A model generated the notes under the pieces. The model did no database searches and was not told where the DNA came from. It saw only the letters and a list, made by a program, of their open reading frames with translations. A DNA stretch of 60,032 bases, the filler included, from Rhabdomonas costata (taxonomy: Eukaryota): the NCBI GenBank assembly GCA_019059605.1. It is 10 parts of 10 records of this genome, joined end to end, with 100 filler letters (N's around TTAATTAATTAA, not from the genome) between each part and the next. Parts side by side here need not be neighbours in the genome. Positions count along the whole stretch, not along the records: positions 48,279 to 53,975 come from JAHMHO010000047.1; 9 more parts are not named here. One strand, 5' to 3'. Of the stretch, positions 1-54,087 are shown one piece after another. Each line of letters starts with the position of its first letter. The stretch's first letter is position 1. A program made the position numbers and the translations under genes.

Positions 1-1
1 T

Positions 2-3000
2 TTGTGTGTGGCCCATATGTGGCGCACGGTTCCAAAGGGCTTTTCGATATCTTCCATTCATGAGAGACTTCAGCGATGCTGTGGAGACACATTTCCATAC
101 GCAGTTCAACTCCAGATCGCATGGCATCGGTCTGTCAGGCTCCTGATGCAGTGGATTCAGGAAGGAATCGAAAAGCCCTTTGGAACCGTGCGCCACATAT
201 GGGCCAGACACGAATTCCAGACGGACGTTGGTAACCTCAGTCACGTCCATTTCTTTGTCTGGACAGAGGAGCAAAGCCTCGGAAATCCAGAGCTTGGGGA
301 GAACTTCCGACAGGACGCCGCAGCTGCTTTGGAAAGAATCACTGCCAGTATCACCGAGAGAACGTTCGCTGGCCTTCCGAATGCTGAGGCTTTGAGACAG
401 CTAGCGCTGAAAATCCAGATGCACAACTGTGGGACAAAGTGCACCATGCCAGATGGGACCTGCCGGTTCCATGCTCCTTTCCCATGCCATGATTGGGACA
501 AGTTCGTCCCGATGCATGTCGAGATTCCACAGGCACTTGAGAACATTCTGATTGAGGCCAAGCTTGCCATAAAGAAGGAAGACGGAAGTATTGAGCTCAA
601 CCCCGTGCTGACTGGAGGAAAGCACTGCCCAGCCCGTGGCTTTGCCTGCGAGAGAGTTAGTTCCTTTAGTCCACTTCTCTTTGCTGCAACTCTCTCCCAT
701 GGCAACGCCCAAGTTTGCAACGGGCGTTTTGTTCTGGCATATCTCGTAAAGTACGCAGCCAGCGAGGAGGAAAGGTGTGTCGTGGCCCTAACTCAGAAGA
801 CATCAGCATCATGTGGGGCGACAGTTTCTGATCACAAAAAAAGAAAGCGTGTCGCTGTTCCTTCAAAGGATGAAGCTGCCACAGGGCATCAGATTTCAAT
901 GACCGAAATTTTATTCCACTGCTTGGCTCTTCCAACAGTTTTCTCTACGTTTGAGCCTGTACATGTGAACTCTGGTCCGTTAGAGCACAGATACGTGCCC
1001 TTCAAACCAGGATTCATCCCTGGAAGTGACTGTGGTGGAACTGAGCCTCCAAATGGAATTGTGCAGCCTCCAAATGATGCTTATGATGCTTCTTCAGACT
1101 CATCCCACCAAGAAGCTACTACACTTGATCACACACGTGTCGGTGGCACACAAACGCCAGATGGAACCTGGGTACCGCTGTGGCCTGACCGTGAACCTCA
1201 TTCCGAGCAACAAATCACAGTTCATCGACACAAATTTGATCGCTTTGCTGCTGACAAGGTCACTGTTTACTGCCTCCGGCCTCCTGAACTATGGTCTCTA
1301 ACTTTTGATGAGTACTTCGCCAACGTGTCGATTAAATACCAGCCACGGCCTTCAGCTGCAGATGCCCAGCAAATCAGGCTCGACTGGAAGTCAAATGGTC
1401 TTCTCGACCTCAGAGACTATAGGGTGTGGCTTAGACCCACATTCGGTCTCGACCAGAGGCTCGTTACGGATCTTTTTAAAAGACTGGGTCATCCTGAACT
1501 GGCGTTACCGTTTACAGTGGCTGTAAGGCAGAAGCTCTCTTTGTGTTTCTCTCCCGAAAATTGGGTAACTTCTTTGGTGAACTTTGACCTTTTGGAAGCG
1601 GTCGTTGTCCATCCCAGATACTCTCCAGCTCAACCTGCTGCGTGGTTTGTCCAAAGGGCGATCCGCAATCATGTCTTTGGTGATGAAGAAGAGCTCCTTC
1701 AAAACTACATGCTTCATGTCCGAGAAAATCCTCCCGATGTCCTGACACTGATACACGATTTCGTCCTTGAAGAACTCCGGTTCTGGCCCGTAGGCTACCG
1801 CACAATGTTCAAAATCGTTGAAAGTGTGTGGAATGTATGCTCCGCACGTCCATGCTTTGAGCTTTCCTGGGCGACAAGCGATGAGGAAGCTGGTGATATC
1901 TTCGTTGAAGCCTTCGATCAGCTCATATCTGAAATGGAGATACGCCATTCAGCCGCTTTGTCGTGTCTTCCACCGTGGCAGAAGGCCCAAGGGCAACCTG
2001 ACGCGTCATGGGAGGAGCAGTCCTTGGCTTTCGGGGTTTTAAAGTCTCAGCTTCATCCTTTCTTTGACGGGAACTTCAGCTTGGACAATCAGCCGAACAT
2101 ATCACCGATTTATATTTCCGGAGGCCCAGGCGTAGGGAAAACCTTCTTGATGCTCACTATGGCGCGCGCTTTGCGCCAGGAAACCAGCACCTTCTGGGAG
2201 GTTGTCACCCTGTCTGCGCACAGAGCTGCTGAAATTGGAGGAGTGCACATCCACCTCTTTTTTGGGTTTAAGGTGGGGAATATGAAAAGAAGCACCGCCG
2301 CCAGTTTGGCTGCTTCGTCCATTCAGACACTCAACAGGCATCCTGAGCGGAAGCGGAGGTTGCAAGTTCTGCAAGTGCTCTTCGTCGATGAGTTTGCTCA
2401 GGTGGGCGCCCTGTTGAACGCCGCCATAGACATGCTGTTGCGCTTCATCAGGCAGGTGGACCTGCCATACGGCGGTGTTACCGTGGTGGCCTGTGGAGAC
2501 CACTACCAGATAGAACCAATCGACGAACCTTCCCCACTGCGTTCATGGTTCGTGAAGTTTCACTTTAGAACAATCCCTCTGAAGCAGCTCTTTCGATCAT
2601 CAGGTGACCCCGTTTTGCAGCACCAGATTCGCACGGCACGAACTCCTGTTCTGACTGAAGTACAAGCAACGCAGATATTGGACGCCATCGAGAGCCACTG
2701 TCAGCGAGTTTCCGCCTCCGCAGTGCCTTCCGAAGCTACATGGATACTAACAACGAACCAGGCAGTCGCCGAGGCTCGAGACACGCTGTACGAGAAGAGC
2801 CAGGCTGATAAAACTGAGCTCCTTAGTCATGATTATCTCCTCAAATCTGGGTCTTGGGTCCTCACTCGAGACGCAAAGCATCTCCGCTTCCTTGAAAAAT
2901 TTTCCGCACTATGTGAAGTCGTCAAGGTGGTAAAGGGAGAATTCATGACAGTAACTCAGAACACCACGACCTCTGCAGGGATAATTCCCAATGGTACAAA

Positions 3001-3829
3001 AGGCAAGGTTGTTGCATTTGCTACCCACCCAGCAGAGACGGTCACTCTCTCTTTTGAGTCAGGGCGATCGCATTGCTTTACAAGGACGACCTCGCAGCCA
3101 ATGCACAGTCACTCCAACGTCAGCTTGAAGCGAGCGCAGTTTGCATTGGAGCTTGCGTGTGCCACCACCGTCCATCAAAGCCAAGGTTCGACGCTTCAGA
3201 GCATAGCAACCACCGTGGATGGTCAAAGCAAGAACAGATTCTGGAGCAGGAGCATGCTGTTCACTTTGCTGAGCAGGGTCAGGACACTCGGAAGCATTTA
3301 CCTTATTGGGTACAATGTCGTTGCTCGCCAGCTGCTTAAGTCATTGCTGCTCACAAGGAACCATTGGTACGCCTATGCTGATTACTGGGTGGAAGTGGCC
3401 AGTCTCCTCAGACCAATTTCAACAGTGGTAGTTCGTTCACCAGCGCTACCAAGGGCACCATTTTATGGAGGCAGTTCCGGACTTCATCCTCCTGGAGCAA
3501 ACGAGAACGCGGTCTACTTCATCTGCAGCCGAATGCACGGTATCACTTACGTGGGCTCAACCACAAACGTCGCCAACAGACTGGATCTCCACAATAGCGG
3601 ACTCGGAGCTCTGGCTACGACTTTCACTCGGGACTGGGAGCTCAAAGCCTGCATTTTAGGGTTCCCTGCTGGATCAGGAGGTTACTCAATTGCAAAGGAC
3701 TTCGAGACCACACTGCAGCACCAGCGCACCTCTCCTTACCCACCGCTGTCTACGTGGCTTGCAAAGGGTACAGCGTTGATGGAAGCGTGGCGCATGGACA
3801 AGTGTTTGCCACTGTGGCTATATGTGTAG
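2..3829 (+). CDS. Helitron-like RepHel transposase, 5'-partial: HUH Rep + PIF1 helicase + C-terminal GIY-YIG (SLX1-like) nuclease
   Basis: Uninterrupted 1275-aa ORF. Rep motif 2 is WARHEFQTDVGNLSHVHFFVW (~200-262) and motif 3 is AYLVKY (~738-755). Linker motifs ISMTEIL..LALP and YCLRPPEL are present. PIF1 motifs occur in order: GGPGVGKT (~2119), AAEIGGVHIH, VDEFAQV, GDHYQIEP, LKQLFRS, ACATTVHQSQGSTL, LLSRVR. The C-terminus has AVYFI..ITYVGSTTNVANRLDLHNSG..A..T..RDW..ILGF (~3509-3665). Confidence 0.9.
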   Translation: MCVAHMWRTVPKGFSISSIHERLQRCCGDTFPYAVQLQIAWHRSVRLLMQWIQEGIEKPFGTVRHIWARHEFQTDVGNLSHVHFFVWTEEQSLGNPELGENFRQDAAAALERITASITERTFAGLPNAEALRQLALKIQMHNCGTKCTMPDGTCRFHAPFPCHDWDKFVPMHVEIPQALENILIEAKLAIKKEDGSIELNPVLTGGKHCPARGFACERVSSFSPLLFAATLSHGNAQVCNGRFVLAYLVKYAASEEERCVVALTQKTSASCGATVSDHKKRKRVAVPSKDEAATGHQISMTEILFHCLALPTVFSTFEPVHVNSGPLEHRYVPFKPGFIPGSDCGGTEPPNGIVQPPNDAYDASSDSSHQEATTLDHTRVGGTQTPDGTWVPLWPDREPHSEQQITVHRHKFDRFAADKVTVYCLRPPELWSLTFDEYFANVSIKYQPRPSAADAQQIRLDWKSNGLLDLRDYRVWLRPTFGLDQRLVTDLFKRLGHPELALPFTVAVRQKLSLCFSPENWVTSLVNFDLLEAVVVHPRYSPAQPAAWFVQRAIRNHVFGDEEELLQNYMLHVRENPPDVLTLIHDFVLEELRFWPVGYRTMFKIVESVWNVCSARPCFELSWATSDEEAGDIFVEAFDQLISEMEIRHSAALSCLPPWQKAQGQPDASWEEQSLAFGVLKSQLHPFFDGNFSLDNQPNISPIYISGGPGVGKTFLMLTMARALRQETSTFWEVVTLSAHRAAEIGGVHIHLFFGFKVGNMKRSTAASLAASSIQTLNRHPERKRRLQVLQVLFVDEFAQVGALLNAAIDMLLRFIRQVDLPYGGVTVVACGDHYQIEPIDEPSPLRSWFVKFHFRTIPLKQLFRSSGDPVLQHQIRTARTPVLTEVQATQILDAIESHCQRVSASAVPSEATWILTTNQAVAEARDTLYEKSQADKTELLSHDYLLKSGSWVLTRDAKHLRFLEKFSALCEVVKVVKGEFMTVTQNTTTSAGIIPNGTKGKVVAFATHPAETVTLSFESGRSHCFTRTTSQPMHSHSNVSLKRAQFALELACATTVHQSQGSTLQSIATTVDGQSKNRFWSRSMLFTLLSRVRTLGSIYLIGYNVVARQLLKSLLLTRNHWYAYADYWVEVASLLRPISTVVVRSPALPRAPFYGGSSGLHPPGANENAVYFICSRMHGITYVGSTTNVANRLDLHNSGLGALATTFTRDWELKACILGFPAGSGGYSIAKDFETTLQHQRTSPYPPLSTWLAKGTALMEAWRMDKCLPLWLYV

Positions 3830-3846
3830 ACCCTTTCTACAGTCTT

Positions 3847-3913
3847 GGGGGGATAGGGATTTGGACTTGGAAGCCTTTTGGTGGGGATAGGGATTCGAAA
3901 TTGGAAACCTTTC
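3847..3913 (+). repeat. Two imperfect ~34-bp direct repeats
   Basis: GGGGATAGGGATTtGgacTTGGAAgCCTTT and GGGGATAGGGATTcGaaaTTGGAAaCCTTT, just after the RepHel stop codon. Confidence 0.8.
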
Positions 3914-4140
3914 AGATATTTTCATAAACATGACAACAAATAACTTTCGTTTGCTGAAGCTCGCGCAAACAATTTGCCTTTACTTTATAGGCGTTATTTA
4001 CAACAACTTTGGGAAAGCATTAAAATGTTTTCTGGCAAAGGAAAATATTTCGTTCCTCCCAAACGTGTCAATAGGCTCTCTCTTTTCGTATTTGCAGAAT
4101 TTCAGTTTTTGGAACTTTGTTGTCTTTTTGGAATTCAGGA

Positions 4141-4719
4141 ATGTCTCAAAAAGAAGAAACAGAAAGTGCGCGCTCTCACGAAGTGGAAATCTCTGAGCAA
4201 AACGAAGCTCTTCTTGAGGCTGAAGGAATGGCACATCATTCTGAGGACTCGCAGCACTCACTCCACCCGGATGATCTCATCAGCATCAGCTCCGCAGATC
4301 AAAGCCAGCCAGACGAAGCTCAAGAAGGAGATAATCATGAAAATGACGGGCACTGCACTCCTTGTGGTGGTGAACCTGACCTACAGCCAGAACAGCCTCC
4401 AGCCAACGCTTTGCCTGAGCATCAATCTCCTCCGCATGACGACCTACTCCACGCTGTTCGACCCAGTCCTAGAACCTTCCGCCGAAGGAATCAGAGGATG
4501 CGAGCACAACTTGGCCTTCCACAACGAAAGCGCGGCCGTCCATCCAGGATGAGCCTTGAGGCGGACGATATTGCAATTTACCTCCTCACCCATGATCCAC
4601 AAGAGGTAAAAAAGGATGTTTTTTCAATCACGTGTGCTCAGATTTTCACACCAACTTCTGCTTTCGAGCGTTTGAGGACTCACACCGCAGCACAAGAGTA
4701 CCCTCATTGCCAGGGATGA
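4141..4719 (+). CDS. Hypothetical acidic/disordered protein with an AT-hook-like motif; probably the first exon of a spliced gene
   Basis: Open frame MSQKEETESARSHEVE..., rich in E/D/H/Q/P, containing RKRGRPSR. A possible donor site GAG|GTAAAA lies near 4605. Confidence 0.4.
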   Translation: MSQKEETESARSHEVEISEQNEALLEAEGMAHHSEDSQHSLHPDDLISISSADQSQPDEAQEGDNHENDGHCTPCGGEPDLQPEQPPANALPEHQSPPHDDLLHAVRPSPRTFRRRNQRMRAQLGLPQRKRGRPSRMSLEADDIAIYLLTHDPQEVKKDVFSITCAQIFTPTSAFERLRTHTAAQEYPHCQG

Positions 4720-5569
4720 AGCAGGTCATATTCTTTCGAAAGAAGAAACGCTCATATCCATAAACACTGCGTTTCACACACCCGCATTTCCACATCTTTA
4801 TACCAGTACATGATTTTAACCACAAATAAGGCGCAGTTAGTATCTCTCGCCGTGCCGTCACTGCATCGAAAGTTAAAGTAAAGCTAACCTTGAACCCTGT
4901 TTCTCATCCCGATTATGTTTTATTGGCAGAATGAGTGCGAAAATCAGGCCGTGCACGGCGCAGAATCCAGCTCAAGCTCAACCTCAAGCTCATCATCATC
5001 AAGCTCCAGCATGGCATCAGGCCAAAGCTCATCCCAGGCACTGCAAATTTCCTTTTCAATTGATGCTTGGTGTCAATTCTTCATATTTGTTGCCAACGCA
5101 CCCATCACACCACAATCCATAGATTCTTCAACAACCGCTTCCTCATGAAAGACAAGCTCCAGACGACACCAACTCCGCAGATGAAGACGACGAGGTTCAC
5201 CGCTTTTTTAGGTGGTCTACAACTTCTCACTTGACTAATGCCAAACACTCATTAACTTTGACTTTTTCAGACACCCTCGGAGGAGAGTTGACAACATCGG
5301 CACGCGGATCAACGCGGATCAACGACGTGAACCAAAGCTGAATCGGACACCATGCCCTATATTCTAGTGTTCTGTTTCTCTGCGGAACAAAGATCAACTG
5401 TGGTAATCCTTGACTCTTTTGAGCCACTCGAACGCACCTGGTGTGATGCGGTTTCCATGGACCAGATTCTGTTGCCATTCGTTGACAGGGACATGCTCGG
5501 TGGATCTTTAGTGCTAGGATTGGAAAGGTCCCCGTACAACGTCTCCCAATATGTGTAGTGACACCTGCA

Positions 5570-5822
5570 TGTCCTTTTCGGGTTTGTCCCTTTTCAGTAA
5601 TCTTTTTGCTGCATGTCCTTTTTCAGTGTATGACCTTTTATTCGGTGACCTTTTTCGGGCTGTCCTTTTTTGGGAAGTGTCCTTTTCCGGTAGGTGACCT
5701 TTTTCCCTCTGTCCTTTTTCGATGGACCTGTCCTTTTTCGTTGGGTGACCTTTTTTCCTGTGTGTCCTTTTTCGGGAAAGTGTCCTTTTTCGGTACGTGA
5801 CCTTTTTGCTGCGTGTCCTTTT
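5570..5822 (+). repeat. Array of ~16 TGWCCTTTTT motifs with variable short spacers
   Basis: Units such as TGTCCTTTTTcgggaaag, TGACCTTTTTcgggc and TGTCCTTTTTcgatggacc. Period about 13-19 nt; truncated by the scaffold end. Confidence 0.9.
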
Positions 5823-20453: not shown

Positions 20454-23400
20454 ATGTCCAAAGCGCCTCCGAAGTACGCTGTTCTTGAGAGGCAGGACTG
20501 CCAGTGTGTCATTAGCTCCGAGCCTACGCTGAAGAAGCTTAGCGTGGAGCTCTTTCGGTCCGAGGGTGACCCCGACAAGCGCCGCGTTGTCCGGGGCGAG
20601 TTTGTGAAGCTCTTCTCCGCATTTGCGGAGTGGATCGGCGCGAAGGTCGTTTTGTGTGATCCCGAGGAATTGGAGAATCGATCGAGTGAGACGTACCGCC
20701 ACCAAACGAATCAACGTTGGGTGAATTCTTAAGGACAAGCGAAATGAGCCAACAAGCTTCTTTTGGGGGGTGGGAAGTCGTAATTCGCGGAAACCGGCCC
20801 AGGTACCCGAGATTGTGGGCGAGGAATTCTAGTCATTCTTTCGTTTGTGATGGCCTCTTTTGAAGCAAACTTGCCTCATCTTATTGTGTGCACCAACTCA
20901 GATTACACCTGAAGAGTGCGCAGAATGGTTCAGTGCAGCAGACGCTTCGAAGCTTGGCAGCCTGGCTGTTGGGCAATTTTCAGCCCTTCTACAGAAGTTT
21001 GTAAAGGTCTGCGCATTATGCTTTCCGCGTGCTTTCAGTTTTGTTAATCCGCCGTATCTCCGAGATACCTTTCCACCTTCATTTGCTTTCCGGGTAGGTG
21101 CGAATATCAACGCAGTTTCTGCGCATCGTGAAGGTCACGGTGTTTGTAAAAGTGTACGTAGAGGCCCGAAACTACCACGTGCCAGTGACAACCACGGCAA
21201 TTCTCGCCAGAACCTTTCCCGAGCGAAGGCAGCCCTTTGCGGCATGCCTCTCGGAGCTCAGCCCAATCTCCTTGGATGAAGCATCCCGCCACAACGCCGG
21301 AATTCCCTCCCGTGCTCGAATGTACTGCTTCGCCTACCCTTGCCTCGATGACTCCGAAAGCAGGTTGTTTGGTGCAGTTGTTATTGAGCGTTTCTTATGT
21401 ATGCTTTCCATCTTACTGGTCCACCTTGCTTGGCCTGATGTGAAACTGCGTCTTTGCTTGTGATGTCTGATTGGTACACTCAGACCAGACCGATGAAATC
21501 AGATGCTCCAAACTGATCCGAAGCTTGCCGCTTGGTTGAAGCAGTCCTCATGCACACACCCTCTATTTTTGAAGCTGCCTCTATTTTAGGCTGATCCCGA
21601 AGGAGGACCCCCTGTGGGGCTTTCTCACCCTGGGGGGATTTTTCTACCTGGACGAGTGCTACAACCTCATGCAGGTCAATGGGTTGCTGGAGGTGGCCTG
21701 TGAGGGCGCGGAAAGGCTAGGGACGAAGATGCTGCTGCTATCCTCGGCCCTCCCCGTGGTGCAGGAGATGCGCAATGTGGCCACCTTGCAGCCCTATGGC
21801 AGGCCCTTCCTAAATCAGTCCAACACCGCCAAATTTGCGTGGGTTTCCCCAAGTACCATAGGTGCTGTGCCGCTCCCCTCCCAACTCTCGTTTTTGTCTG
21901 AAAGGTTGCTGAAATGGTATTAGGGAAGATCTTTGGCCTTGAGACGTCATTACAGTTGCCGTCTGATACCCACACCAGATGCAAGCGCAATCTATGTCAA
22001 GGATAAGGGCAGTTTTTGATGCACAGATCTGTTGTTTCATTGGCCTAATCGGAGATTAGAAGACATTCATGCTGGATGCAGCAGAACGTGTGGTCAACCG
22101 ACCAGCTCGGTGCAGTGAAGACTGTCAAGTTTCGGTGTTTGGTCATATGTTTCAGCGGACCTACCCGTGGTGGCTCCGCACGGGTGCTTTGTGATCTCCC
22201 ACTCTGATGGCAAGCCAGATGTAATGATTCGGGTTCTATGCAAGGCAGAGGGGTGCTGCGACCACAATATGTGGGTCGCGCCCACCCCGCGAGCCCCTAC
22301 CAGTGCCCCCCGCGATGAGGCCATTCGTCGCTACCTGCGAAAGTTTGCAGATCAGTCTGAGAAGCTTCTCGACGACGTTACCACCATGGATAAAGATTGC
22401 CACGGCCTATTCTCGATCCTCGCCGAAGCGAAGCCCGCGATTCCAAAAGCTGAGCTTCAGGTAGTTCTCGCTCAGTTGGGAGATTTGATGAAACGGAAAG
22501 TCCAGCCTGATGACGTAAAAACGTGGCTCGATGATACCCTTAGTGACGAACAGAACGAGATCGATGAGGGCACATTCGCTGTTCTCATGAGGCAGTTCCT
22601 GACGAACCAGATTGCTCTGGAGCGGATGGAGCTCGCGATTAAGAAGGCCATAAAGGAGGGCCCGTCAGGCTTTCTGTCAGGTGCTTCGGATTCTGCGAAA
22701 CTTCGCGTTGTATTTATCCACAAGGACGTGAAACTGCAACTCGTTCTGAACGGCTCTCAGTATTTCTTCCGCGACACCACGATTGAAGGAGTGAAAATTC
22801 CTTCTTCGATCAGGGGAAGTCTGTCAGAGATGGCAGACGTCAACCTCGACCCTCGTGGTAAGCAAAAGGCGGGCGTTCCGCGCAACGCAGCTCGCTTCTG
22901 CTTTACCTACCCTGCTTCCGAGCTGAGCGCTTTGGCTGAACTGAAGCCGCTGGAGAAACCGGCGCATGCATTTCTTATTGCGGGAGGGTTTGTCTATCTG
23001 GACAAGGGGAACAATATTCTCAGGATCAACAGACTGGGCTTCTTCGATGCCAAGCAGCACTCCCGTTCCCTGATCCTCTCCTGCCCCAGACCCGTGACCG
23101 TACTCCGTCCTGCACACTCACAGGGCCCGACCTCAGCCAGGCCTCCTGCCATGCTGGCTCGTACCCTCCTGGGAGTGGATATTTTGGAAAGTTACGAGTG
23201 GGTCCCACCAGAAGCCGCTGCTTCACACGGTGTCCCAGAGTCTACCCATGGGGCCTTTCTTGTTTCGGTACGAGCCCCGGCGCGAGAGAGCTTTCTCTTC
23301 CACGTCCTCTGCCGTGGTATGGCATGCTGTGGAGACGAATGGAACAATGCCATGGGGGCGCGCTCCCAGGCCCCAGCACCTTCCCTCGCCACTGAAGGTC

Positions 23401-23622
23401 CCGCTATGGGCATGCAGCGAGTCCTGGACTGTTACCAGAAATTGAGTACTTCCACCAACCCAGCAGGTCTGCAGCTTTGGGGCAGGCGGCTCTTCGCAGA
23501 GATCGCGGACCAGGCCACCGGCACCATGCTTTCTCGCAAGCGTTTTGTTACTGCCCTTGACAAGCTGGTGAAGGCCCTCAAGCTTAACCTCGACACGGCA
23601 TCTCTGGAGTCGTGGTTTACAT
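20454..23622 (+). CDS. Multi-exon, 3'-partial protein with EF-hand-like pairs alternating with a duplicated unrecognised domain
   Basis: Exons 20454-20645, 20902-21006, 21098-21363, 21590-21861 and 22156-23622 join in frame through GT-AG introns (phases 0, 0, 2, 1). EF-like loops: ADASKLGSLAVGQF and SDEQNEIDEGTF. Internal repeat: NAGIPSRARMYCFAYP..GGFFYLD versus KAGVPRNAARFCFTYP..GGFVYLD. Confidence 0.8.
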
Positions 23623-42259: not shown

Positions 42260-43648
42260 AGCCCCTTCTGCAGTCCGTTTCGCGGTGCATACTGCGGCAG
42301 GCCTTTTGGGGCCCCACTCGCGGTGCATCTTTCATTTGCCGTTTGCCATTTGATGTTTGCAGTTGTTTTGCTGTGTGCTTATCTGCTGTGAGAGAGAGCC
42401 ATGCTCCCTGCTCCCGGTCCTTTCTTGTTGCTTTCTTTTGGCTGCATTTTGACATTGGCCGGTCTTGACACACCAGCCGTTGTCAGAGTCCTTATCGCTC
42501 TCTGTGTTGGCCCTCCTTTGATGAGCCCCCCGGAGCTCCCCACTTGTCCCACTTGTCTTCGCCATTGCAATGTTTCTTTGGGTGAATTTTGTCTAGTCTA
42601 TTGGGACAGAGTCTTTTTCAGGACTTCACCATCCCGCGTGTGCACTCATTCGTGTGTGCGAGGCGAATTGTGCTTCGTTTTCGTTCCGTAGGTCTGTATA
42701 TTTTTATGATGATAAATCATGTCAACAAGCCATGTGATGTAAAAAGCAACACGAACAGCTTGAAGCATCATCAAAATTTCCAACGTTCAAAGGTGAGAAC
42801 GTAGATTCTAAGAAAATTTTTATAGATTGTTTATAAATGATGTTGTAAAGTATGTAATTAATGAAGATAAAGACGTTAACATGAATTTATTTATGATGGA
42901 TCGATACAAGAAATGCTTTTCGAAATGTTAAACTCAAAGTACACACCAGATATAATTTTTATGGACAATACAATTAAAGGTTTGACGTCGTTTATTTTTT
43001 TAAAATAAATGATTGTCAATATGTAGAGCAACATTCAAGCATAGCGTCAGATTCTTTACATATAATAGATGAAGAAGATTTTGATACATTCTATAAGTAC
43101 AATAATAAAGCTAATGAATGGCTATTGAATGATATGTTCGTATCGAAATTTGAGTCGGAAACAAGAAAATATCTTGGATATCATGTTAATCCACAACATA
43201 AAAAAGGCGCACTTTCAATACTAAAGAGCATCAAATACCCCTCAAAAGTGGCAAATAACTGAAAAACCACAATAGATTTGACTCAACCAGGAAAATATCG
43301 GGGTTTAATGGGCAAGAGGATGCGCAAGACCAAACAAGACTACACCAGCAAAAATGCAGGTACATGTTGGCGGGTGTGCTAATTGGTTAAATTTCGAGTT
43401 AATGCGGTGGTCTCGAAAATTGAGCAATTTTTCACGTCAAGTTCGTCAAGTTCGAGACGCTCATTTTTGACGGTGGTTTCAAAAATTGCGCGCGCGATTT
43501 TGTCCATTTTCCAAGACGCCCGTCTTAGACGCTGGTCTTGGATTTTGCCCATGGCAATTGGACAAGACGGGCTGGTCTCGGCGATGTATAAATGTGTAAA
43601 TATACTGTATACTGTAATACTGTATACATACATAGTATATTATATACA

Positions 43649-43774
43649 CAGTACAGTACAGTACAGTACAGTACAGTACAGTACAGTACAGTACAGTACA
43701 GTACAGTACAGTACAGTACAGTACAGTACAGTACAGTACAGTACAGTACAGTACAGTACAGTACAGTACAGTAC
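43649..43774 (+). repeat. (CAGTA)n pentanucleotide microsatellite
   Basis: About 25 perfect units running into a gap. Confidence 0.97.
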
Positions 43775-47900: not shown

Positions 47901-48399
47901 GAAGACCTCCTGAACGTGCCGGGTTTGGGGGCAGCTTGTCACACATGGTTCACTTTTCGGCGCGAAACCCCGACCCCATCGGGGTTTCGCGCCGAGAAGA
48001 CCTCTCTTGCATATGACAAAGTATGACCATCTACTGCGGACTTCCAGGTTTACTCCAGGACACGTTAGCAGCAGGGGGTTAGATAACCTTTCCCAGGTTC
48101 CCGCAAGGACCGCCGTGCGGTGCTCTGCCAACCATTTCTTTTCTCTCCCTCCATGATGGGATGTCCAACCAACCCACCNNNNNNNNNNNNNNNNNNNNNN
48201 NNNNNNNNNNNNNNNNNNNNNNTTAATTAATTAANNNNNNNNNNNNNNNNNNNNNNNNNNNNNNNNNNNNNNNNNNNNTGTTTTGTTTTCGTTCATACGG
48301 AGCTCTACTCCGGAGAACGAAAACAAAGCGGTGCTGGGCCATGCAAAAATATAGCGAAAGCGAAATTAATCTTTCAAAACAGAGAACCCGAAGAATGGT

Positions 48400-49280
48400 C
48401 TCCGGGCATTGCACCAGTCCTCGACGAAGCCCCTGGACTTCGGCCTCGGCCTGAGAAACCTGCATGCTCAGACTAGCCTGTGCCAGGCAGTAAAAGAGAA
48501 CAGCAACGCAGGCAACAACGATTACTCATTGGGAATTCATCCCCTCCTTTTGAAGCCTCGAAACACCGCACTGTTCCCACCTCGGTGCATTCCCAAAAGA
48601 AGGTGCAGTCCCGAAACTTCCACGGCTCAGGCCAGGCGTGTCACATTCTCAGCCACACCACACCCACCCATCGACTCACCCACCCAGATATACACCGTGA
48701 ACAAACGAATGCAGGATTATTTAATGTAAGAGTGCGGTGTGGGGAGGAATGGTTGAATGGTCTCTTCTCAGCACCCCTCCCCACCAGATTTCCTTACATC
48801 TCCTTCCCTTGCACGTATGCACACTCACATACATCTTTGTTCTGCAGGGACTGAGCGAGCCTGTCCACTTCGTTCTTTGCGGCCTGCAGCTCGGCCTTCT
48901 GCGAGATCAGGGCCCTGACCTGGATGGCGAGGTCCAGGATTTGCTGCTCCACCTCCAAAGCCTTGGGCCGATCCGCCTCAAACTCAGAGCTGCAGACATG
49001 ACGTGTAACCCCTGACATCTTCAGTATCGTGAGGTCTGTAGCGTCCGTGGGTAATGACATCAAAACAGAGAACAGCAAAAACAGAACAGCAAAACAGAAC
49101 AGAAAATGGAGCAGTGTGATGAGTGTGATGCATTAGGCAACAGTCAACCGGTAGGTGAGAGAGTAAAAAGAGTGAAGGGGGATGGTACGAAAGGTCGCCA
49201 TACATCCTTTGCTCGTAGAGCTTCTCCAGCTGCTGCCCCCTCGCTCTCTCAAGCTTCGCTTGCTCATCCAAAATGCGCTG
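48400..49280 (-). CDS. Coiled-coil protein exons (partial model)
   Basis: Exon-like blocks RILDEQAKLERARGQQLEKLYEQR, ALEVEQQILDLAIQVRALISQKAELQAAKNEVDRLAQSLQ and VSQAEAEVQGLRRGL, with plausible splice sites. Confidence 0.5.
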
Positions 49281-49846
49281 CACAAACAAAATCGAGCATT
49301 CATGCACCTCGAGAAAAATGAAACAGATTGTGGCTCACTGAAACAAGTGTGAGGTCACGGGCAGCCGCAGCATTGGTATAGACACTGCATCCCCCCGAGG
49401 TCACCAACCACTCTACCAAACTTAATTTCTGCAATTGAAAACATAGCGCAGGAAAACAAAGGATTGAACGAGAGAAGAAGCGTACTGCGGGCGAAACGTG
49501 CATAGCAACCTTAAAAACACACGCAGAACTTGTGGAACTTTTCATAAAGCAATTCAATTTTCCAGTGCTGAGCTGCTGTTCAAAACGGCCTGATCGGCGT
49601 TCAGAACATACGAACTCACTTTGTGGGGTTGCTTTGCCGTATTAAAGACAGTGCTTTGCTGAGCTTATGGGGATGGCATTGATAATGGTGGTGGTTGCAG
49701 TGAGCAGTGGAAGCGTGAGTAGTGCATGCACAAACCATTTCTTCGCTCGCAGGGTCAATCTCCACAAACAGCTGGCGGCGAAACTCCACAAGCACCAGCA
49801 GACTGCTGAGGAACTTCCGTACTCTGAATGCACAGTGAGCACAATC

Positions 49847-52800
49847 CTATGTATAGGTCACTGTTAGGCTTGGACTGAAGATGACCCTTGCAGTGGAAGA
49901 GCTTCGCGTGGCGAGACCCACTTCTAAAAGCAAGTTTTGAAGGTCGTCTGGAACTTCGACCTCGAAAGGCACGTATTTGTCGGTGTCGTGCAAAGGAAAT
50001 GGTGCCCACTTTTCAGTGCACAAGTGTTGCTGCAGTTTTCCGGCCAGAATCTCAAGGAAGTCGGCGTTGGAGAAATCCTTGAATGATCCAATGATGCTGG
50101 CTGTTATCCGAGAAAGAGCGGTCTCACAATCTTGTCTGAAGTTCTCCTGCCGGTCTGGATCTCCTATGTATGTTTCGTCCGTCCAAATGAAAACGTGAAG
50201 GTGGCTCAGGTTGCCCACATCCGTCTGGAATTCGTGGCGCGCCCAGTAATGACGGATGTTACCGAGGGGTTTCTCGACTCCGTTTTGCAACCAGGAAAGG
50301 AACAGCTTTGTCACCCTGTACCAAGTTCGCTGGAGAAGAACTGCGAGAGGAAGAGCCAGGGAGGAATTGTTCACAATCAATTCATGAAGCTTGTGGATGC
50401 CTGGAAACAAGAGCTGATTGCATGTCAGGGTCAGAAAATAAGTTGGGATGCTGAGCCTCTTGACAGCTGCGCACAACTGGTTGACCCTTTGACTGGTTTG
50501 TGCCTCATCTCCGAGAAAATTGGGAAACACAATATCAGAAAACTTCTTTGAGTATTCCTCCTGCGATGTGCTTTTGTCAAGAGCGGCCTCAAGACCACGC
50601 TTTACAACCGAAAAAGACGCTGACTTTTCAGCTGCCCCGCAGAGAAGAAGATTGAAAGCATAGCTGATCCAGGAAGGGTCTGCTGCACGCGAACTCTCTG
50701 GGTCTGACAAAGTCTGCTTGATGTAGGTCAGCAGGTCCACAAAGCCGAATCGGGGACCTTTCGAGGAATAAAGCCTCATGGGCATGCATCCAGGATAGTG
50801 ATGGCCTTTCTTTGCTGGGAAATGCGGAGCGTACGCGAAAGCCTCGAGGTACTCTCCGACATTTGGGCCTTCCGGCAAGCGACTCGTCACTCTGGTGGCA
50901 AAGGTCTTTCTGAAGTTAGAGACCGGGTTTGAGGACAGCTTGAAGTCGCCAAGTGATCCCAGAAAAATGTGGAGCGGGAGTCTCTCCGCAGACTCGGTGA
51001 CGAATTCCATGGCATCAGGCAGATTGTCAGCCAGAATATCTTCTTCTGGATCATGCTCCTCAACTGTTGTCGGGCAAGCAACAAAATGACAACACTCTTC
51101 AACTTCTTCGGGATCAACGTACAAGTCGTCATGTTGGAGTGGACCTTCGTCTTCGTCAGTGTCTTCGTCTTCGCTGGTTGACTGCAATAGCTCAGAGTCA
51201 TGATCGGATTGGCGCTGGCATATCTCCGGACTGAGGGTCGAGTTCAACGCCTTGGAGTAGAACAAAAATAGTTCAGATTTGGCATCCAAATCGAGCTGAG
51301 GGAAAGATTCTCCGATTTCATCAATAAAGTTCAGGTAGCAGCTGAACCACACCCTTCTGGCTTTGATATTTCGGCTTGACTGGATGCAGGTCCATCCGCA
51401 GCGCTCCGGGACTGTGCTTCGAAGTAACATGGCTGAAAGAGATCTTCCCTGAAGAACTATGTCAGGCATGAACTTGCAAGGAGCACAGGGTTTCCAGTGT
51501 ACAGCGAACACGTCGGAGCATCGGTACTGCACACCAATTTGGCAAGCTTCACACCGCTGAAGTTGGTCTCGTAGCTTTGTTGCAAAAGCTTTCAGAATGT
51601 CAGAGGTGCAGATTGCTGCAGGGACACTGCCGACGTCAACGTTGGAGGCTTCCACGATGCGAAAGGTTGGACTGCTGAAAATTCTTGGAATCATGCAGAC
51701 TGAGCAGGACTGGGTCACCGTAAATGTGGCCATCGAGGGCACCATCGGATAAGAGAGCCAGGTCAACAGTATGCTTGGAAGCTTGTCAACGCTGAAATCC
51801 TTTTCTACCTGCTTCCACATGGACACCTGAGGCTTTTTTCCCAGCCAGAGATCCAGCAAACAATTGCGGAACACGTGCTTTGAGGTTCCTTTCGGAACGA
51901 AAACATTCCGCAGTTCTGGAGTCGCCATGATAGCATGCGCAACCGCACCAAGTCCTCCATCTTTTGTCCGCGGGAGATGTAGCGGAGTCTTCCACTCTGG
52001 TGGGCCAGCAACAGGAGAGTGCTTATTGGATGGTACGGGAAGAAATGAATCACCCATGGATATAGAATCTAACATCAGTCTGACAGCCTGTTCCTCCTCA
52101 CTGCTGAATTTCCACTGGAAGTTTGTGTTCGGGATGTTCCAGTGAGATGCAGGGCCTTCGCTGCTTTTCTCCAGGAATGGGCGCAGGTCCTCCCGTGACA
52201 GCATCAGCGCTTCCTCCAGCTGTCTGATCAAAGGAATGTTACAGCTCCTGTTCACTGAAGTGAAAGGATTCTGGTCCAGAGTAACCAGCTGAGTACACAA
52301 ACCATGGGAGAGTGCCCCCATCTTTGCGGTGTGGAACCGAACATTTCCGGGGCCCTCCCCTCGACGAAGCAGCCGAGTGCCGCTCAAAAAGCGGTCGTGA
52401 AACCTAATTGGACTCATCCAGGCCATGTCTTTAACATTTGGAATGGCGACTGCCTCCACGGTTCGAAATTGTAAGTCCTTAGGCCAGATCGGGCTCAGGA
52501 AAGGAATCCGGTGCAAGTTTGCAGCACAGGTACTGCACACGGCTGCTTGAAGGATATCGTTGTGAATAATGACGCGGGTGAAAGCCTTGCCGACAGGAGT
52601 GAGTGAAGCTGTATCCCATCCAGGAGCTAGGTGTGGAAGATCCTCGGGGCTTTTTGCTTTTCTGGAGCGAGACAGCCAGGCCGCCTCTTGAAAGTGATGA
52701 AGTGGTGTAAATTCATGCTCACCCGAGATGAGGAGAGTTCTGCAGCGAGCGCACTTTGTGTCCCATTCGGCAGCTGCTAGTTCTTGAAAGACTTGCAGGC

Positions 52801-53385
52801 ACGAAGGAGGAGGGGGCGCAACCTTTGAATCCTCGGTACCCCGCGGATTTGCGAAATTTTCGGGAAATGCCTGTTCCCAGGTAGCACGAACACTTGGTGG
52901 AAGAAGTGCCCACGCGGTTTTTTCGCCGATCTTCAGCGCTTGAGAAACGGACACAGGCCACCGTACAAATTTCATTTCCGCACTCGAAGGTTTGTGGTAG
53001 ATGTAGGCGAGGCAGTGAGCGCACAGAGTTCCAGCAGGGTGATGTGCCTGAACGATAAGAACACAAATTCAAGGCGTAAATGGGTCTGGAATTCGGGGGG
53101 GAAACATTACAGATGTTGTTATTAAAAAATGATAAAATAAGGTTTAGGCATTTGGCATACCCTTTCAGGATGGTACAGATCCCTCCGAGCAATGTGTAGA
53201 AAATCCTTTGCGGGCAAATTTCCAATGAATGAGGAGTGTTGAGCAGAGTGGTCTGCTCGCAATAGGGGTATGTCTGTTCGACCACAGCTGGGGCAGTAAG
53301 GCTTGGGATGATACGGCCTTGGTGCAGGAAGGTCGCCTTCTCTCCCAACAATGACATTCTCGTCGCTTTCGGAGTCGACAATCAT
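49847..53385 (-). CDS. Second Helitron-like RepHel gene, N-terminal half only (Cys pairs, pseudo-USP domain, Rep motifs 1-2), 3'-truncated
   Basis: Exon 1 (53385-53161), a GT-AG intron (53160-53048), and exon 2 in frame with the 1042-aa ORF. Helitron N-region motifs LEAFAYAPHFP and RAADPSWISYAFN; motif 1 AAVKRLSIPTYFLTLTCN; motif 2 WARHEFQTDVGNLSHLHVFIW, nearly identical to copy 1. Homology to copy 1 ends at ~49862. Confidence 0.85.
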
Positions 53386-54087
53386 GTGAAAAAACAGCGC
53401 CTGCGTACAGAAAATGTGCAAACTGGGTGAAATGGCAGTTTGACAAGACCTACATGGGAAAAACCTGTCAGATTTTCGGCGTTTGGGGTGCCAAACTCTC
53501 AAACTCGAGAATAATTACTCGAGTGCAAAATCTAATGACAGCGACTGACCATGCGCAAAAATCTCGAGAACCGGTTTCGTGGAATTTGAAGTTCTACGCA
53601 AACAACCCACACCAATCACTGAATCTACAGCAGAACCTACTCACCAGATCTACATCAGTTGCTCGGTTTTCAGTTGGGAGTTGACACAGATGTGAAGCAG
53701 GAGAGTAAAAGACGGGAACTGGAATAGGGTGTCAAAGAAAACCACAAATCTTGTCGTCGAGAGGCGAGAGACACGAGAAAAGATATACGGGTCGTGCCTT
53801 TTGCGTCACTGACTGGAGAGCTTCACAGACACCGTGTGTCAATAAAATCTCTCACACTTCACGGTTTGGGCGCTGCAAAAACCAGAGCGAAAAGACCCGC
53901 AGGCAGTTCCCTCGCTCGCTCTGTCCCGCTGTCCCTGCACACCCACCAAGCAGAAAGGTTCTTAATCCAGGCAGTNNNNNNNNNNNNNNNNNNNNNNNNN
54001 NNNNNNNNNNNNNNNNNNNTTAATTAATTAANNNNNNNNNNNNNNNNNNNNNNNNNNNNNNNNNNNNNNNNNNNNGTGGGGTTGGTG

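Follow-up and report, generated by a model that had tools for sequence, protein, structure and literature searches.

Two Divergent Transposase Copies in the Window

The window analyzed here comprises 60,032 nucleotides (nt) of Rhabdomonas costata DNA (assembly GCA_019059605.1, 97 Mb in 104,289 contigs, hereafter G000), in which short contigs stand in a row with spacers of about 100 N around a TTAATTAATTAA core between them. It contains two transposase gene copies, A and B, that most probably belong to a diversified family of Helitron-like rolling-circle transposons (HUH Y2 Rep nuclease plus PIF1 helicase), forming a lineage separate from HLE1, from HLE2, and from a Helitron clade described in Paramecium. 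Copy A is carried by contig G000:C47 (window 48279-53975) and copy B by G000:C39 (window 1-5822), which are not neighbours. Copy A is a minus-strand open frame running from 53068 to 49850 (1,073 codons), and copy B is a plus-strand open frame of 1,275 codons at 2-3826, part of a 5'-incomplete transposase (2-3829) recognized by Pfam, a PDB profile match, and sequence. Over an overlap of 190 amino acids, the two copies are 47% identical (E 1e-48), and both contain WARHEFQTDVGNLSHxH. The synonymous sites of this overlap are saturated (pS 0.83, pN 0.36, 178 codons), and A and B are therefore separate elements, as a sequence-only reading of the window had held.

Joined, the copies encode 2,218 amino acids, close to the roughly 2,200 that the same reading had predicted. 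In Pfam, copy A matched Helitron_like_N at E 9.6e-10, and copy B matched PIF1 (E 6e-13) and GIY-YIG (E 8.7e-8). On the minus strand of copy A, an ATG at 53385 opens a 75-codon exon 1 (53161-53385), which carries the first CxxC and has a homologous exon in nine copies, followed by a predicted phase-0 GT-AG intron of 113 nt (53048-53160). The N-terminal CxxC region continues at 52151-53047, with further pairs at 53023-53012, 52753-52742, and 52537-52526; it is conserved in genome copies and in the database proteins P0012 and P0013, and is putatively zinc- and DNA-binding by analogy with the N-terminus of Helraiser as described in the available text of PMC4778049. It is followed by a pseudo-USP domain, with a predicted USP fold and with Gly in place of the nucleophile and of the His (51200-52150; AlphaFold, Foldseek, and alignment to protein P0053), an acidic linker evident from the sequence (51000-51199), and the N-terminal two thirds of an HUH Rep domain (49861-50998; Pfam Helitron_like_N), with motif 1 at 50446-50417 and motif 2 at 50245-50195. 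On the plus strand, copy B contains motif 2 (200-250), a zinc motif (422-463), the YxxKY tyrosines (740-754), the PIF1 Walker A (2120-2143) and motif VI (3266-3283), and an SLX1-type GIY-YIG domain (3512-3709). The predicted order of CxxC region, pseudo-USP, linker, Rep, PIF1, and GIY-YIG was borne out by folds, Pfam, and residue alignment, and is found in a single chain in P0012 and P0013.

Both window copies are fragments, and A as assembled cannot be active. About 46 bases at the start of copy B lie inside a fold-back at the contig edge. Copy A has a 27-nt in-frame deletion at 50006, which removes nine codons from the zinc motif after motif 2, and departs from the element at 49861, before the YxxKY tyrosines; its frame is closed by non-element DNA (49847-49860, minus strand), at a junction into an intron-containing host-like region that was examined with X1 and X3 contigs. 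Three runs of one sample (X1, X2, and X3) carry the copy A stretch. An X1 contig has 27 extra letters at 50006, corresponding to the form without the deletion, and X1 and X3 contigs continue beyond 49861 with Rep-coding sequence, while an X2 contig represents the deleted form and one X3 contig crosses the 49861 junction by 30 letters. Near-identical intact and damaged forms of A coexist in one sample, and the junction may represent either an insertion that was truncated or a chimera formed during amplification. Loose ends resembling primers in the X1-X3 runs, together with the contig fold-backs, suggest amplified DNA. Fold-backs or chimeric contig ends were observed at window 1-214, at the ends of L003, and at 5972-6088 of L024 (C86).

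The Rep Domain and Its Motif 2

The Rep domain of C342, another copy in the genome, was modelled from a 56-row alignment with a predicted local distance difference test (pLDDT) score of 81.6. In a Foldseek search with this model, Helraiser (PDB 7lcc) was the sole match below E 0.001, and the structural alignment to 7lcc gave Z 15.3 with a root-mean-square deviation of 3.3 over 222 residues at 15% identity, the next chain reaching Z 5.9. The family thus shows Helitron_like_N, the 7lcc fold, HxH, and, in B, YxxKY; copy A ends before the tyrosines.

In this family and its relatives (hereafter the clade), motif 2 reads E-[FY]-Q-x7-HxH, whereas the canonical motif has x5 with RG. With the spacer measured from the E-F-Q/H triplet up to the first His, motif 2 was readable at 14 of 23 genome loci, all 14 with a seven-residue spacer and none with RG. 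Relatives were collected with a profile of eight Rep pieces (E<=0.001), which matched at least 410 of 1.84 billion 50%-identity representatives, and motif counts were taken from the best 150 of the 410. The motif could be parsed in 125 of them: the spacer was of seven residues in 111, of nine or ten in 12, and canonical in 2. RG occurred, before N or elsewhere, in 8 of the 111. The residue before HxH is P as commonly as S. The sequence-only reading had described a longer motif without RG and marked by SHxH; its length and the missing RG hold throughout the readable genome loci, and the serine is not diagnostic. On these alignments, the marker of the clade is the two extra residues plus GN.

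The E and both H of motif 2 are at least 90% conserved in the 56-row alignment. In the model, E250 closes the strand 242-250, H260 and H262 open the strand 260-267, and the two extra residues fall in the loop between these beta-strands. As the E and HxH stand on strands and the additional residues in the loop, the chemistry of motif 2 should be unaltered by the insertion.

USP-like and GIY-YIG Domains

The USP-like region of copy A was modelled by AlphaFold with a pLDDT of 72, and all listed Foldseek matches of the model were USP-family proteins (best USP18, E 3.1e-9, TM 0.45). Pfam gave no UCH or peptidase match in copy A, and the ESM Atlas returned only leads at 0.80 for this region. In alignment with P0053, whose USP is intact, Gly occupies the Cys position in four of the five genome copies that cover the box, the exception being C4, where a Cys stands one residue off, and the His position in six of seven, C333 keeping the His. 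Model and alignment together indicate a real USP fold that lacks Cys and His and is presumably dead.

A profile of this domain reached P0012, P0013, P0053, and P0049 but no other long clade protein among the 62 searched. P0053 (3,197 amino acids) combines in one chain PIF1, a weak GIY-YIG, and a full Pfam UCH domain that retains its Cys and His boxes; a further USP-like stretch, weaker than the first, lies at about 560-900. The motif 2 of P0053 is not parsable, and the protein stands outside the tree described below. P0053 and P0049 are clade relatives with an intact in-frame USP, and weak OTU matches were seen in some clade members. UCH is reported to be almost restricted to HLE2, and we also observed an HLE1-type protein of 2,582 amino acids, P0174, with a precomputed UCH domain.

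For the GIY-YIG domain of B, the five best of seven PDB profile matches were SLX1 proteins (best E 3.4e-6), and the catalytic set of Y, YxG, R, H, and E is kept in B and most relatives. From this alignment, the C-terminal nuclease is classed as SLX1-type with its catalytic residues retained. GIY-YIG was found at E<=0.01 in 14 of 19 long matches outside HLE2 and in all five proteins of a second scanned set, and is absent from the precomputed domains of 15 HLE1 and 120 listed HLE2 rows. The sequence-only reading had made the joint occurrence of pseudo-USP and GIY-YIG decisive, and both are held in one chain by P0012 (2,663 amino acids) and P0013 (2,543 amino acids), which are collinear with A and B and are their closest full-length proteins among the relatives listed.

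Copies, Selection, and Introns within the Genome

A search of the genome contigs with the motif region gave 24 matches (27 candidates) on 22 contigs; the PIF1 region matched 29 places, the GIY-YIG region 17, and the N-terminal region 22, and many copies carry stops or frameshifts. One of the PIF1 places, L058 (G000:C1744, 85-2319), is a canonical HLE1 helicase fragment, 60% identical to P0161. The complete copy sought by the sequence-only reading was recovered for most of the architecture: C86 alone covers A485 to B1273, beginning in the latter half of the USP-like domain and reaching the GIY-YIG end, and its N-terminus is supplied by C1930, over an overlap of 114 nt at 98%. Rep and PIF1 are present in one chain in C86, C342, P0012, and P0013.

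The comparison of B with C6391 gave a ratio of nonsynonymous to synonymous substitution (dN/dS) of 0.095 over 645 codons (Nei-Gojobori script); this sole unsaturated pair agrees with the purifying selection proposed before. The first-exon intron, 74-129 nt long, has an identical position and phase 0 in all nine copies with a usable exon 1 (junctions chosen by eye, the rearranged C301 excluded), in support of the 113-nt phase-0 intron predicted near the 5' end of copy A. Its borders are GT-AG in eight copies and GA-AG in one, and the predicted splice links CxxC to CxxC in frame in eight, the ninth having a stop in exon 1. Two other phase-0 introns vary among copies: the first, just before the tyrosine helix, is predicted in C6437 and C86 and is absent from B, C342, C14050, and C333; the second, within the helicase, is predicted in C86, C5230, C1765, and C12319 and is absent from B. 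This apparent intron gain or loss among copies is a new observation. No intron-skipping joint was present in the X1-X3 runs, which were treated as DNA and have no bearing on expression. A GA instead of a GT donor was observed in two predicted introns, before 604 in L077 (C14488) and at about 3975-3890 in L024 (C86); two mutations, or acceptance of GA-AG introns by the host, would explain this.

Introns, a low dN/dS, and SLX1-like and USP domains of host-like appearance are also what a domesticated host gene family, such as a repair helicase-nuclease under purifying selection, would display. At least 20 divergent loci, many with stops or frameshifts, a conserved Rep with both tyrosines, and near-identical variants with a deletion or truncation make such an origin the least credible of the alternatives considered here.

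Relatives and Phylogenetic Placement

The hagfish Myxine glutinosa is annotated for P0052 (also P0305 and P0306) and was the sole named host in the 30 clusters looked up; a longer cluster mate of P0052 has a weak GIY-YIG. Many of the other relatives may derive from diatoms. In metagenome contigs, 32 pattern matches came down to one locus of 1.8 kb. Narrow pattern scans of viral contigs, phages, and plasmids, which do not prove absence, gave no match. Pattern scans of prokaryote genomes gave 0 and 1 matches, and the single match was rejected as chance in a non-coding frame.

Reference sets from homology searches comprised 15 HLE1 proteins and 120 listed of 346 HLE2 proteins. The joined tree contained 61 rows and 719 columns (34 clade, 16 HLE2, and 11 HLE1 rows), with P0171, P0173, P0175, P0177, P0189, P0053, and P0082 omitted as their motifs were uncut, and P0168 as mis-cut. 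The clade, HLE2, and HLE1 each fell on one side of a branch with a Shimodaira-Hasegawa-like approximate likelihood ratio test (SH-aLRT) value of 100, and single-domain trees agreed (clade SH-aLRT 100 for Rep, 99 for the helicase). Copy B clustered with C342, C86, P0012, and P0013. The clade lies outside the 11 HLE1 rows, and the motif was canonical in 12 of the 15 HLE1 proteins, the other three being unparsed; it also lies outside the 16 sampled HLE2 rows, which include no HLE2 c/d, plant, or oomycete forms. The Helentron apurinic/apyrimidinic (AP) endonuclease position is occupied by GIY-YIG in the clade. By the sequence features tested, the family is neither HLE1 nor Helentron.

No description of the motif or architecture was found in the full-text literature as far as available, including PMC6431247, PMC10288648, and PMC8788227, with Repbase, subscription journals, and bioRxiv supplements outside this scope, and the lineage is probably not yet described. 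Against this, the elements could belong to a group already sampled and left undescribed in motif and architecture, namely the UCH-bearing HLE2 c/d, the GIY-YIG-bearing HelenSM92, or an unclassified HELIANO cluster. The HELIANO study (PMC11417382, available text) gives room for such a group, since it reports UCH enriched in HLE2 c/d, one GIY-YIG-bearing HLE2 family (HelenSM92), at least four unclassified clusters, elements of two diatoms labelled HLE2, and unclassified elements in 19 genomes. DUF6570, an HLE2 marker, speaks otherwise: it was found in 0/19 and 0/5 clade proteins of the two scanned sets and not in copy A, and was present in the HLE2 control P0139. Moreover, all parsed HLE2 rows (22 of 24) have the five-residue RG motif, and the two canonical-motif proteins among the profile matches grouped with HLE2 in the tree. 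We regard membership of an already sampled group as unlikely, though it is the strongest competitor.

The Paramecium 'third clade' Helitrons (PMC13085455) share with our elements very long open reading frames (ORFs; there 3,052-3,592 amino acids) and a position outside HLE1 and HLE2. Identity of the two lineages appears highly improbable: Hel01Copy020, the single ORF from Paramecium that was inspected by eye, carries an RG motif 2 with a spacer of five residues and stops about 80 codons past helicase motif VI, and neither the main text nor seven supplements of that paper contain the string 'GIY'.

Accessory Gene, ORF X, and Flanking DNA

A gene absent from the sequence-only reading lies upstream of the transposase. 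Its 3' end, the His-box half with a stop at 53861-53859, occupies 53859-53975 of the window (minus strand) and continues in C24324, which is 98% identical to 53482-53975, and in C2676, which overlaps C24324 at 89%. Accessory-gene ORFs gave 16 matches on 15 contigs, and the gene lies immediately 5' of the transposase in the same orientation. This order is present inside single contigs in C4, C879, C461 (only the N-terminal half), and C10821, and across short overlaps between contigs in C193-C1930-C86, C6804-C333, and C39980-C793. The accessory gene fuses a zinc-ribbon/putative OB part to a USP. A profile of 11 ORF pieces of this USP matched USP15, USP8, and USP4 in the PDB (best USP15, E 6e-9); its Cys box is intact in four of the five covering pieces and its His box in five of six, C4 being the exception both times. 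With intact-looking Cys and His boxes, it is a candidate active deubiquitinase. The N-terminal half has, by eye, a CxxC..CPxC C4 zinc pattern resembling RPA70C, and Pfam and PDB gave no match for an OB fold there.

A small ORF of no known family, ORF X (4075-4716, plus strand), has homologues in C25189 and C193 and is probably part of the element. It is found 3' of GIY-YIG in C39 and C25189 (L134:479-616) but 5' of the accessory gene in C193 (L156:3632-4183), a placement that a tandem or circular array, or relocation of the gene, might explain. Beyond it, 1.7 kb past the stop of B, begins a satellite of TGTCCTTTTT/TGACCTTTTT units; the TGTCCTTTTT-type repeat fills the C39 end (5570-5822, plus strand), with matches on about ten other contigs (L121-L132).

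The flank alignment proposed by the sequence-only reading did not define termini. All-against-all flank comparison returned overlapping contigs, ORF X, and the satellite and no shared end, and neither TC/CTRR ends with A|T insertion, as in HLE1, nor subterminal inverted repeats with T|T insertion, as in HLE2, were identified, the boundary search having been run on fetched contigs of <=7.4 kb. Mobility consequently rests on copy number, decay, and homology. In C193 (L156, about 4339-4384) and C8821 (L164, 763-790), a 400-nt non-coding stretch, 72% identical, contains a hairpin with unequal stems; this stretch may be a terminus or a small non-autonomous element, and no element end could be linked to the hairpin.

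The two positions of ORF X, the lack of termini, and the frequent location of relatives on contigs of 8-17 kb could also be explained by a circular or tandem replicon, plasmid-like or in head-to-tail arrays, instead of a dispersed transposon. Such a replicon is improbable given the spliceosomal introns, the many decayed copies, the relatives on contigs of 0.1-4 Mb, and the absence of matches in the narrow plasmid, phage, and viral scans. Helitrons themselves form circles and arrays, and a replicon would thus be compatible with a Helitron-like family.

Elsewhere in the window, a tandem repeat of the pentamer TACAG enters a gap at 43640-43774, and an open frame of about 500 codons at 22119-23622 had no Pfam family above threshold.

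Interpretation and Proposed Mechanism

The assignment to a distinct Helitron-like lineage draws on folds, residues, gene order, copy diversity, and selection as established in this analysis. Several observations weigh against it. The Rep sequence profile found no match to Helraiser 7lcc in the PDB, and flank DNA searches around A, B, C48295, and C193 gave no terminus, hairpin-plus-end motif, or empty site. Ten of the 11 dN/dS pairs are saturated at synonymous sites, with protein identities of 42-84%. Five of the 19 long matches show no GIY-YIG, and that of the hagfish member scores weakly (E 0.014). The assembly contains fold-backs and chimeric joins, and chains over 114-168-nt overlaps are not single molecules. 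The trees were quick LG+G4 trees, unrooted, without outgroup or bootstrap; their HLE2 rows are mostly animal, with subgroups c/d and the plant and oomycete forms unsampled, and their clade rows were picked by a profile of this very family. The suggestion of a new Helitron-like clade therefore holds with respect to the sampled HLE1 and HLE2, within neither of which the clade nests, and is less firm with respect to HLE2 c/d and the unclassified HELIANO clusters.

SLX1 cuts branched DNA, and because of this activity we propose a role in target nicking or trimming for the GIY-YIG domain. The complete element would exceed 8 kb and would carry an accessory gene with introns and a spliced transposase gene, both in the same orientation; the transposase would have about 2,200-2,800 amino acids and comprise a CxxC region, pseudo-USP, acidic linker, Rep, PIF1, and SLX1-type GIY-YIG. 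By analogy with Helraiser, which depends on the two His and two Tyr residues as well as on the Walker A Lys and the Arg finger (PMC4778049, available text), HxH would bind metal. The YxxKY tyrosines would nick and join single strands, the leading end being nicked and held on a tyrosine, and the helicase would peel one strand 5' to 3', which would be joined to the target. At the place of the Helentron AP endonuclease, whose own target-nicking role was proposed and not shown in the available text of PMC4067079, GIY-YIG would cut branched DNA, either target forks and flaps or a branched insertion intermediate. We consider the chances about even that the domain serves transposition by cutting forks or flaps or by trimming the branched insertion product. 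Roles of the USP domains in the element are a matter of speculation.

A broader scenario, which we advance tentatively and hold to be more doubtful than sound, is that of an old separate lineage extending from protist-like hosts to hagfish. In it, an SLX1-type nuclease would have replaced the Helentron AP endonuclease, for insertion at forks or flaps or for resolving the element's own branched intermediate, and the element's own deubiquitinase, active as a separate gene and dead within the transposase, would protect the covalent adduct of transposase and DNA against ubiquitin-dependent removal.

Helitron classification recognizes two main groups plus the recently added clade of Paramecium, and detection depends largely on profiles of these groups; a clade with at least 410 representatives that scores weakly on the Pfam Rep model may often go unnoticed or be given the wrong label. 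An unrelated second nuclease at the AP-endonuclease place offers a natural comparison for the role of the extra nuclease, a question made testable by the naturally intact ORFs of P0012 and P0013. A dead internal USP beside an intact-looking adjacent one bears on why Helitrons keep capturing deubiquitinases.

Comparison with Known Systems

The Helentron/HLE2 group, as described in the available text of Thomas et al. 2014 (PMC4067079) and Li et al. 2024 (PMC11417382), shares with the clade the combination of Rep-PIF1 with a C-terminal nuclease, and HLE2 elements also include deubiquitinase domains (OTU, UCH) and an upstream RPA gene. The clade differs by its SLX1-type GIY-YIG in place of an AP endonuclease, its seven-residue motif 2 without RG, the absence of DUF6570, and a branch separate from the sampled HLE2 rows in the Rep and helicase trees. 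HelenSM92 of Sphagnum (PMC11417382, Fig. S8), compared by its description only, is Helitron-like with GIY-YIG, and is presented there as an HLE2 family with a captured domain.

The HLE1 element Helraiser (7lcc; PMC4778049, available text) and the clade have in common the Rep fold, HxH, an N-terminal zinc-finger-like region, a superfamily 1B (SF1B) helicase, and two tyrosines four residues apart, whereas the clade protein is longer, with pseudo-USP and GIY-YIG, and TC/CTRR ends were not seen. The Paramecium Helitrons (Arnaiz et al. 2026, PMC13085455, available text) likewise fall outside HLE1 and HLE2 and have giant ORFs that evolve under purifying selection. They target telomeres, and the one ORF read has the canonical RG motif and no C-terminal GIY-YIG. 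Finally, the Y..YxG..R..H..E signature of SLX1 (PDB 7wme, 6seh) is kept in B and most relatives, and the clade domain differs from SLX1 in being fused to a helicase, with no RING domain seen after GIY-YIG.

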